Below are positions 5,240 through 9,015 of a stretch of DNA of 64,000 nucleotides, one piece after another. Under the pieces are notes generated by a model. That model made no database searches, had not been told where the DNA came from, and saw only the letters and a program-made list of their open reading frames with translations. How positions within the stretch are numbered: the stretch's first letter is position 1; each line of letters begins with the position of its first letter. The stretch lies in the NCBI RefSeq assembly GCF_024298765.1, contig NZ_CP101210.1. One strand, 5' to 3'. The position numbers and the translations under genes were made by a program. This stretch comes from Escherichia coli. GTDB lineage: Bacteria > Pseudomonadota > Gammaproteobacteria > Enterobacterales > Enterobacteriaceae.

Positions 5240-5268
5240 TTGCATTTTTCAAAAAACATGGATAAGAT
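5240..5268 (+). promoter_or_regulatory. candidate late promoter (PR'-like): -35 TTGCAT, 17-bp spacer, -10 TAAGAT
   Basis: TTGCAT at 5240-5245 and TAAGAT at 5263-5268, 32 nt after the Q stop codon. Confidence 0.45.
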
Positions 5269-5314
5269 TCTCTCAACGATGGGCTTTGTGTATCCGACGT
5301 TTAGAAAAAAGTAG

Positions 5315-5340
5315 AAAACCCGCTTATAAGCGGGTTTTTG
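5315..5340 (+). terminator. intrinsic terminator (tR'-like) downstream of the candidate late promoter
   Basis: AAAACCCGC-TTATAA-GCGGGTTTTT hairpin with T-run. Confidence 0.6.
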
Positions 5341-5883
5341 TGCTTTAAATGGGGCAATAGAGATATTGAATCTCATCCCGGGATAAACATTGGCAGTTGA
5401 AGGTCCACGCGAACCATTTATCCGGCAAAATTCCACGCGTAATCCTGTGGTAATTTCTTCTGCATCTCGAAGATTGAGAGCTGAAACGTGAAGCTGGGCA
5501 TCGATACGCCATCGGATGGGAATATAAGACCTTTGCTGCTTTTGTAGTCAAAGTTTTTGACAATTCCTGTCATTTTAGGGGACAGAAAAACTCCTTAATA
5601 CTGATAACCTGGTGCACCATACACACGTTCCTGGAGAAAACTACTTTTTTGATAGGGTTGAAGGTGGCTGGATGTCTAAAATAAACATTGCTTCATATGT
5701 TCAACTATGAGTTAATGACTGCGTCGGTTTGAAGAACAGACGATATACGAAGTAGTTTACTAAAGCAGTTCTCATTTCAGGTGTTATTCACTTATTCCTT
5801 CTTTGAGTCTCTCCAATTAAGTACGAAGTCGTTTCTGTTATGCAAACCATTTATGCCGAAAGGCTCAAGTTAAGGAATGTAGA

Positions 5884-6099
5884 ATGTCAAATAAAATGAC
5901 TGGTTTAGTAAAATGGTTTAACGCTGATAAAGGTTTCGGCTTTATTTCTCCTGTTGATGGTAGTAAAGATGTGTTTGTGCATTTTTCTGCGATTCAGAAT
6001 GATAATTATCGAACCTTATTTGAAGGTCAAAAGGTTACCTTCTCTATAGAGAGTGGTGCTAAAGGTCCTGCAGCAGTAAATGTCATCATTACTGATTAA
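5884..6099 (+). CDS. cspB: cold-shock protein CspB-like
   Basis: 71 aa [64 protein letters not shown]...; RNP-1-like KGFGFI motif; long upstream leader typical of csp genes. Confidence 0.8.
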
Positions 6100-6380
6100 A
6101 ATTCATCGCTCGTCTGTATACGATAACGAAGAAGGCTGATGCCTGAGTAGAGATACGGACAGAGTAGTGAATATTGGATCTCTTTAATAAAAAGTAAGGA
6201 GGTCCAATACATGAAACAATGGCCAGCATATTTGGCAAAATCTTAATCAGGAAAAGTATGCTAACCATTGTGGTGAAGTGCAGGTTTGCTGCATGAATAG
6301 TTTTACAGCAGAAGCTAACTGCTGGCATGGCAAAACAAAGTGCGTAAGTGGATGACTCCCACAAAAAGCACCACAATCTC

Positions 6381-6405
6381 AAACCCGCTCAGGCGGGTTT
6401 TTTAT
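6381..6405. terminator. GC hairpin with flanking A/T runs (possibly bidirectional terminator)
   Basis: AAACCCGCTCAGGCGGGTTTTTT between cspB and the minus-strand small ORF. Confidence 0.4.
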
Positions 6406-6462
6406 TATCTGCTTTAAATATATTATTAAAATATAAAAAATACTTGTTACTAATAAAATCAA

Positions 6463-6633
6463 TCAGGCTACAGCTTTAAGATTTGTCTGGAATACTTTGT
6501 TGCAATGAGGGCAGATCAAAAGGGCACCTTTTTGTACTCTTGAAAAACTGTGTTCTGACTCTTGGGTGCAGTTTGGGCAGGAACATTTAACGAGATAATT
6601 ACGGCGTGATTTTGAGTCTTTACGTTCTGACAT
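6463..6633 (-). CDS. small zinc-ribbon protein (56 aa from internal Met)
   Basis: CSCPNC...CPHCNK four-Cys ribbon with a basic N-terminus; AGGAAA ahead of the Met at 6633. Confidence 0.35.
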   Translation of the reverse strand: MSERKDSKSRRNYLVKCSCPNCTQESEHSFSRVQKGALLICPHCNKVFQTNLKAVA

Positions 6634-6852
6634 AGGCTTTTCCTGTATAAATGGCCGTATACAGTACACTAAATATGAAAACATTTCTCGTATTATTATT
6701 TTATATATGACTTTCTTTCAAAATAATTACTCACATTTTTAATGTGTATGTTTCTTTAGCGCCGTTGAGAACAACGTGTGCTGTCAAAACTACCCCGTAG
6801 ACTCCGATCTTTTCAAACATATTGCACCATCCGTGTACATCGGGGTGAGGAT

Positions 6853-7068
6853 ATGAAATCAATGGATAAGTTAACAACAGGTGTTGCCTATGGCACATCG
6901 GCGGGTAATGCTGGTTTCTGGGCATTGCAGTTACTCGATAAAGTAACTCCGTCACAGTGGGCTGCAATCGGTGTGCTGGGTAGCCTGGTTTTTGGCCTGC
7001 TGACGTATCTGACAAATCTTTATTTCAAGATTAAAGAAGACAGGCGTAAGGCTGCGAGAGGAGAGTAA
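6853..7068 (+). CDS. essQ: holin (lambdoid S-like, dual-start MKSM motif)
   Basis: 71 aa from ATG 6853 with GGTGAGG upstream; dual-start MKSMDKL, a hydrophobic helix region and a charged C-terminus; directly upstream of ydfR and the lysozyme. Confidence 0.7.
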
Positions 7069-8408: not shown

Positions 8409-8771
8409 GGTAATATTAAATCGGAACATTTACATCGCGGAATGTAAAATTTAAATAAAAAGGACTCTTCCATGAGCCAAAATTCCTGAAATCTTAAGGG
8501 TAAGATAAAAGGTCTTAATCAGAATGACACGTTTTATTAATAAATAAAGCTATTCTTTCATTGCTGTGTTTTTCTTTACAAAAGTAATCCTTGCTATGGG
8601 TGGTTAATCATGCGTTAATGGTGTTCTGGTTTGTTACAAATTTATCTGAAGCAGTCATTTTTATAATTTTATTATTTGTACCTCTTGAGATTTCCTTGTT
8701 GGTTTTTCTCTCTGATATTTTTTTTTCGGACCATTCTGCCCAAGGGCTAATTTCTTCAAAAGGTAATAATT

Positions 8772-8984
8772 ATGTCTAACAAAATGACTGGTTTAGTGAA
8801 ATGGTTTAACCCTGAAAAAGGTTTTGGTTTCATCACGCCGAAAGATGGCAGCAAAGATGTGTTTGTCCATTTCTCAGCAATTCAGAGCAACGATTTCAAA
8901 ACATTAACTGAGAATCAGGAAGTTGAATTTGGTATTGAGAACGGACCTAAAGGTCCTGCCGCTGTTCATGTAGTGGCGCTTTGA
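8772..8984 (+). CDS. cspI: cold-shock protein CspI-like
   Basis: 70 aa [70 protein letters not shown]. Confidence 0.8.
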
Positions 8985-9015
8985 GGTAGACAATATTACA
9001 AACCATATTCACTTT

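Follow-up and report, generated by a model that had tools for sequence, protein, structure and literature searches.

The zinc-ribbon ORF between cspB and the holin gene of a Qin-type prophage region is ynfU, a selected gene linked to cold-shock genes rather than to lysis genes

Why does a short open reading frame (ORF) with the cysteine pattern of a zinc ribbon lie against the direction of its neighbors, between the cold-shock gene cspB and a phage holin gene of Escherichia coli? The window, the whole 64,000-nucleotide stretch of E. coli DNA analyzed here, carries this ORF at 6463..6633 on the minus strand, from an ATG at 6633 to a TGA at 6465-6463. A preliminary description had noted a 56-aa ORF, opposite in strand to the late operon, with a basic N terminus, a CxCPxC...CPHC ribbon, and a ribosome-binding site; direct reading of the sequence, the ORF listing, and the coordinates bear out each of these points. 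Five of residues 1 to 11 are basic, the cysteines form C17-x-C19-P-x-C22 and C41-P-H-C44, and the sequence as read has a Shine-Dalgarno AGGA (6641..6644, −) 7 nt 5' of the ATG, with CAGGA(G/A) kept at the same spacing across 46 aligned leaders. On one side lies cspB (coding sequence 5884-6099, +), whose mRNA (5723..6146) includes a cspA-type thermoregulator (Rfam RF01766, 158.9 bits) and is convergent with the ORF. On the other side, by annotation and ORF, is essQ (6853..7068, +), the class II holin gene that comes first in the lysis cassette and is divergent from the ORF.

The ORF listing gives a 73-aa frame at 6463..6684 (−), in which the internal Met at 6633 begins the 56-aa product MSERKDSKSRRNYLVKCSCPNCTQESEHSFSRVQKGALLICPHCNKVFQTNLKAVA. 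We rejected the start at 6684; its extension is not conserved and the ribosome-binding site precedes Met 6633. The shorter start is right because MS[EG]RK is conserved there, N-terminal extensions found in some database entries are not, and strain K-12 annotates the gene at 171 nt (56 aa). The product scores 107.7 bits with Pfam PF23499 (YnfU; cutoff, 27), with residues 1 to 49 covering the 49 profile positions, and 79.8 bits with NCBIfam NF038384 (cutoff, 36). Curated cutoffs are thus exceeded over the full length of a protein with two CPxC knuckles and within the family length of ∼50 to 60 aa.

A 601-nt query around the ORF was present in 1,660 of 5,426 complete genomes and matched many complete E. 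coli chromosomes at 100% identity; among the matches listed, the annotation at the identical position is “ynfU: putative zinc-binding protein YnfU.” In strain C5 the order is hokD-ydfU-ydfT(Q)-cspF(pseudo)-cspB-ynfU-essQ-ydfR-rrrQ-rzpQ-cspI-ynfQ-ynfR-ynfN-gnsB. YnfU of K-12 MG1655 (b4776, cryptic prophage Qin) is identical at 55 of 56 residues, N6D being the sole change, and the K-12 order (cspB-ynfU-essQ-ydfR-rrrQ-rzpQ-cspI) is the same, so that both sequence and synteny identify the two genes as orthologs. Over the surrounding 4.1 kb, identity to K-12 is 99%; the differences lie in the allele, the host strain, and cspF, which a deletion of 258 nt compared with K-12 (at 5383/5384) truncates in the window. 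Strain C5 annotates this cspF as a frameshifted, incomplete pseudogene, and the deletion probably touches the K-12 ynfS region too. We conclude that the ORF, which the preliminary description had not recognized as ynfU, is this already annotated and experimentally detected gene and not a new one. The observation thus rediscovers an annotated gene and changes little in itself.

Published work on the K-12 ortholog establishes that YnfU is translated in that strain. Weaver et al. discovered ynfU through ribosome profiling in which initiation complexes are stalled (Ribo-RET) and confirmed the protein by immunoblotting of a SPA-tagged version, at the top level among all of their new small proteins. 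YnfU was also the only one of these with a recognizable motif, the two CPXC zinc knuckles; it could be modeled weakly on the PhnA-like protein PA0128, and no function was proposed. The same small-protein work detected YnfU at 37°C in stationary-phase samples. RiboReport records full ribosome profiling coverage with a start-site peak, and PIRT-seq detected ynfU independently. Later papers repeat “possible metal binding” or list ynfU among the Qin genes. YnfU ranks among the more highly expressed small proteins of E. coli that lack an assigned function, which gives the locus some value.

There are 46 ORFs of at least 30 aa in the 4.5 kb around ynfU, so ORF size proves nothing alone, and it is conservation that makes ynfU real. 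A scan of enterobacterial genomes gave one locus for each of 62 species. In 59 of these loci, the frame is intact, with a length of 51 to 60 aa; two of the others are truncated by the end of a contig, and one (L066) may carry a frameshift. Synonymous divergence is at saturation (mean pS, 0.76, against a pN of 0.18), and the median dN/dS is 0.11 for pairs with 0.1 < dS < 1.2. Loss of the frame among relatives, which the preliminary description had named as grounds for dismissing the ORF, was therefore not what we observed, and ynfU is a genuine gene under purifying selection. That it might be a chance open frame in AT-rich spacer DNA, as many ORFs of similar size arise by chance nearby, has practically no likelihood left and is already refuted by the family HMM matches, the frame kept across genera, the dN/dS value, and the published translation. 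The family is small: a word-indexed search returned 49 clusters, all from Enterobacteriaceae, and an exhaustive HMM search of 1.84 billion representatives gave just 45 clusters at an E value of ≤0.001. This last result also disposed of the idea of a larger YnfU superfamily.

The preliminary description implied a connection with the late genes, and the genomic context did not sustain it. Across the 62 species loci, we found no conserved linkage to Q, holin, or endolysin genes. An EssQ-like holin gene lies within 1 kb of ynfU in three loci, an RrrQ-like endolysin gene in two, and Q in one; even within ∼1.7 kb, lysis genes occur in only five (L016, L017, L033, L065, and L066). The conserved neighbor is a CspB-type cold-shock gene, found within 1 kb at 45 of the 62 loci and mostly in nonprophage chromosome. 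Genes ynfN (20/62) and ynfQ (13/62), frequently divergent from ynfU, also occur within this distance, and at least one of the three kinds of neighbor is present in 49 of 62. When loci were grouped by their outer flanks, 29 independent contexts remained, 22 of which have the csp neighbor. With nine csp genes per 4.6-Mb genome, the chance expectation is ∼0.5%. We conclude that ynfU travels with a csp cassette and is linked to cold-shock-domain genes, not to lysis genes.

Much of this distribution is chromosomal. Enterobacter, Klebsiella, and Lelliottia chromosomes carry ynfU homologs among ordinary metabolic and repair genes, and the more distant family members (53 to 58 aa) are stand-alone chromosomal genes without csp neighbors. 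In Lelliottia (L012 to L015, 4507-4740), a gene of the YnaE family (PF27475), to which the prophage genes ynaE and ydfK belong, comes before the chromosomal ynfU-csp pair, a further hint that small csp-linked genes move as a set. Phage records with identical or nearly identical YnfU include HannyBb, Tritos, 2H10, PhiR63_1, and PhiR42_1, and HannyBb holds the entire cspB-ynfU-lysis-cspI-ynfQ-ynfN-gnsB block at 96.5% identity. The Klebsiella phage ST13-OXA48phi12.4 encodes a 57%-identical homolog between a Q-like gene and a holin gene. Phage PHB10 has ynfU in an accessory region near the integrase, in the order ynfN-ynfU-cspB-cspF, away from the lysis cassette.

Where ynfU precedes the holin gene, as in Qin-type phages, it is one example of cargo carried between Q and the lysis gene S. 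Lambdoid cargo genes (“morons”), such as stx, are inserted between Q and the lysis cassette. Like them, ynfU is autonomous, has its own expression signals, occupies the Q-to-S slot, and serves no known need of the phage cycle. Unlike them, it faces late transcription and is mostly a chromosomal, nonphage gene in other genera. The same csp-rich cargo of Qin contains further small proteins, YnfQ/YmcF and YnfR, in the cluster cspI-ynfQ-ynfR-ynfN-gnsB, where cspI has its own full-length cspA-type thermoregulator mRNA (8625-9011, +; RF01766, 113.4 bits). YnfQ also has a Cys-rich, ribbon-like motif but no sequence relationship to YnfU, and homology between YnfU and YnfQ/YmcF was rejected by hhalign (probability, 1%). 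YnfR has been demonstrated in the literature to be induced by cold, whereas YnfU is abundant at 37°C.

The claim that ynfU is convergent with late genes held in part: the gene is convergent with cspB but divergent from essQ, and it would be head-on solely to late read-through transcription arriving from upstream of cspB. Directly after the Q stop (5208), we noted a promoter-like site, TTGCAT-17-TAAGAT (5240-5268, +), followed by a hairpin terminator, AAAACCCGCTTATAAGCGGGTTTT (5315-5338), that is strong and bidirectional. In its arrangement, the 5240-5345 stretch resembles a lambdoid late promoter, terminator, and short leader RNA, and the weak Rfam near-matches there are at chance level. If 5240-5338 does hold a late promoter and terminator, Q-modified transcription would cross ynfU head-on.

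Upstream of ynfU, a block of ∼65 nt (6634..6700, −) is kept with the gene in alignments of all genera, whatever lies beyond it. Based on this co-moving block and its own ribosome-binding site, ynfU is an autonomous transcription unit outside the late operon. The block contains an invariant GTAnnGT 28 to 34 nt 5' of the ATG (window 6661-6667; G39, T40, A41, G44, and T45) and an A-rich stretch further upstream. RNAalifold found zero pairs and no consensus structure in 46 leaders, which points to a DNA-level element, presumably a promoter or operator and maybe one of an unfamiliar type. A structured or thermosensing leader was rejected on these grounds and for want of an Rfam match; the cspA-type 5' untranslated region (UTR) model RF01766 matches cspB and cspI, not ynfU. 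TAnnGT matches a −10 element at positions −12, −11, and −7 but is accompanied by neither a convincing −35 nor an extended −10, and a canonical sigma-70 reading of GTAnnGT was set aside for lack of a clean fit.

A consensus scan placed a candidate sigma-70-like promoter, TTGAAA-18-AATAAT, at 6692..6721 (−) with 10 of 12 matches; sigma-70-like sites here are as numerous as in shuffled sequence, hence its status as a mere candidate. Genomic SELEX has placed RpoD holoenzyme and H-NS in the spacer that holds this candidate and, prior to the discovery of ynfU, credited the site TTTATA-16-AATAAT to essQ. This site corresponds to the plus-strand site at 6700-6727 of our scan. Two candidate operators were discarded. 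A 7-bp inverted repeat before the ribosome-binding site, CTGTATA-N8-TATACAG, is limited to the E. coli lineage and reads CTG-N16-CAG, not N10, so it is no LexA box; an upstream half-match to a Zur box, GAAATGTT, is neither palindromic nor conserved. On the plus strand, between the convergent cspB unit and ynfU, an intrinsic terminator (AAACCCGC-TCAG-GCGGGTTT plus a T-run) occupies 6381..6406. Its minus-strand tail is just UUUGAGAUU, so termination of ynfU transcripts there would be weak.

The spacer between cspB and ynfU also holds a structured RNA of ∼155 nt (6216..6380, +), antisense to the region downstream of ynfU, that had not been described before. The spacer block is 70 to 80% identical across genera and folds into five helices on the cspB strand; the copy at 6216..6380 scores 141 bits with a covariance model (R1). 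This model found the element in 21 of the genome loci and in 45 of 100 IMG/VR contigs that had been fetched with a 15-mer. Wherever upstream sequence was covered, the element follows a CspB-type gene of the same strand at a distance of 76 to 134 nt, usually with a convergent ynfU 27 to 90 nt beyond, and it occurs without ynfU too. Among 28 distinct sequences, 94.2% of cells were paired, with compensatory change in 15 of 33 pairs, in an alignment that had been fitted to the model; an independent MAFFT alignment gave 92.5% and six compensatory pairs. Slid controls reached 26 to 41%, no shuffle equaled the observed pairing, and G-U pairs favor the cspB strand. Rfam 15 has no family at 6216-6380, and we found nothing relevant in the literature on a small RNA (sRNA) or UTR at cspB. 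The element probably belongs to the cspB 3' UTR or is an sRNA encoded downstream.

A conserved ORF in the cspB-ynfU spacer was ruled out by indels of 1 to 2 nt. In the same stretch (6198-6247, +), a perfect Shine-Dalgarno, TAAGGAGGT, precedes by 7 nt an 11-codon ORF, MKQWPAYLAKS with its stop (6212-6247), in a region that overlaps the first RNA hairpin. This mini-ORF is lineage specific: the K-12 lineage has it, and Escherichia sp. E1V33 (L016) and other genera do not. Citrobacter amalonaticus (L070, 6255-6475) has a hairpin-like insertion of ∼65 nt between the RNA helices and still scores 137 bits with the model.

What might YnfU itself do? The AlphaFold2 model built from our alignment has four short strands, one short helix, and disordered ends (pLDDT, 72), and the predicted fold is a zinc ribbon with a single Cys4 site formed by the knuckles C19-P-x-C22 and C41-P-x-C44. 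Zinc binding is putative, being predicted from the motif, and the name carries “putative” in all sources. In the 39 sequences on which invariance was assessed, the invariant residues are C19, P20, C22, S26-E-H-S29, R32, K35, G36, L39, C41, P42, and C44. A few sequences have another residue in place of C17, which is thus probably not a zinc ligand. SEHSF forms the invariant strand between the knuckles in the model, and the basic tail (residues 1 to 12) is disordered. Residues after C44 are variable (xxLFxS), and “TNL” is confined to the E. coli lineage.

Fold and profile searches with YnfU returned generic, nonsignificant zinc-ribbon matches, none of which reached family thresholds. They give no support to the preliminary inference of a small nucleic acid-binding or regulatory protein, and the literature goes no further than “putative zinc-binding.” Foldseek against the PDB gave nothing below an E value of 0.16. 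The top neighbors were archaeal, ribosome-bound small zinc-ribbon proteins (HVO_2753/DUF1610-like; 9znf_BV, 9o17_AZ, and 9fhl_C) that share with YnfU their size (50 to 65 aa) and a single Cys4 ribbon, at 26 to 34% identity over 35 columns; their E values of 0.16 to 0.65 are nonsignificant, and they come from another domain of life. PDB sequence and profile searches gave marginal matches to Tim15 (DNL finger; E value, 0.006), L44e (0.017), and PA0128 (0.021). DNL-type fingers are eukaryotic organellar Hsp70 escorts. The DNL finger (Tim15/Zim17/Hep1, PF05180), the best PDB sequence match, has the same CxxC...CxxC ribbon and a similar S-x-H-S strand between the knuckles. We rejected it because YnfU scores 13.4 bits against a cutoff of 27 and the D-N-L motif is not conserved. 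Assignment to L44e or to the PhnA/YjdM N-terminal ribbon (PF08274; 22.4 bits against 30.8; PA0128 E values, 0.021 to 0.11) was likewise rejected, as scores fell under the thresholds. PHROGs has no YnfU family at an E value below 0.001, and PADLOC defense-protein models gave 0 families at ≤0.1.

The explanation that we consider likely is that ynfU is a translated, selected, autonomous gene, at once phage cargo and partner of a csp cassette. In E. coli it rides in the slot between Q and holin of Qin-type lambdoid (pro)phages, and its constant partner across the Enterobacteriaceae is a tail-to-tail cspB-type gene with its 3' structured RNA, often with ynfN or ynfQ. More tentatively, the protein would act stoichiometrically, its zinc ribbon and basic tail docking on RNA or the ribosome, and this docking would serve the RNA-handling function of the cspB cassette. 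Expression of ynfU may be coupled to that of cspB via convergent, overlapping transcription. This role, of a zinc-ribbon factor that binds RNA or the ribosome and is tied to the cspB cassette, is, taken by itself, a tentative proposal, consistent with the archaeal ribosome-bound ribbons at the top of the nonsignificant Foldseek matches and with the marginal match to L44e. More speculatively, ynfU, the cspB-type gene, and the ∼155-nt RNA could form one convergent module in which YnfU is a zinc-dependent RNA or ribosome binder whose level is set by antisense cspB transcription, a combination that we regard as rather improbable. If it is true, YnfU would be a hitherto unrecognized part of the cold-shock/RNA-chaperone system of enterobacteria that lambdoid phages have spread. 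The comparative context provides the first concrete functional lead for YnfU, a link to csp genes and RNA and not to phage lysis.

We hold equally live the possibility that YnfU is a protein-binding small regulator, its ribbon docking on a larger protein (an enzyme, chaperone, transporter, or polymerase) with no nucleic acid contact. Many E. coli small proteins act in this way. Against this reading, all matches, including the one to zf-DNL with its unconserved D-N-L motif, are subsignificant, and no conserved coding neighbor beyond csp, ynfN, and ynfQ hints at a partner. Very unlikely, in our estimate, is a main role in metal handling, with YnfU as a zinc buffer, store, or sensor and not a macromolecule binder. 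The “putative zinc-binding” annotation, the four invariant cysteines, and an abundance that is fairly high for a small protein would suit such a role. However, in a protein of 56 residues a single structural Cys4 site typically holds a fold-stabilizing zinc, the Zur-box half-match is not conserved, and the invariant surface beyond the ligands (SEHSF, R32, K35, G36, and the basic tail) implies a binding interface.

It is also unlikely that YnfU or its transcription controls late or lysis gene expression, as a repressor, as an antiterminator cofactor, or as an antisense, head-on brake on transcription into essQ. The opposite-strand position between Q and holin in Qin-type phages and in ST13-OXA48phi12.4 invites the idea, and the promoter-like site and terminator after Q suggest that late transcription may cross the gene head-on. 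Nevertheless, lysis genes and Q are near ynfU in few species (5/62 and 1/62 at the distances given above), homologs sit mostly in core-chromosome contexts, and in PHB10 the gene is close to the integrase with csp genes and not at the lysis cassette. The lack of a PHROG family or a PADLOC match also argues against it, and an antisense-only role would leave the strong protein-level selection unexplained.

One standard landing pad for chromosomal integration, treated as neutral (Kuhlman and Cox), is the “essQ-cspB intergenic region,” and Monk et al. (2015) used the same site for IM08B-type strains, citing Kuhlman and Cox and giving primers. The Monk arms (primers IM102 and IM106) map to 6531-6577, inside ynfU, and to 6260-6306, inside the RNA element. 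From these positions, we infer that IM01B, IM08B, IM30B, and IM93B lack window positions 6307-6530, that is, ynfU codons 35 to 56 (the C-terminal half), the terminator, and the 3' half of the RNA; this deduction covers the Monk strains, at least one published strain series. Since codons 35 to 56 are deleted, ynfU is dispensable in laboratory culture. Users of the essQ-cspB site should know that it is not empty, and the IM08B-type strains are ready-made ynfU mutants.
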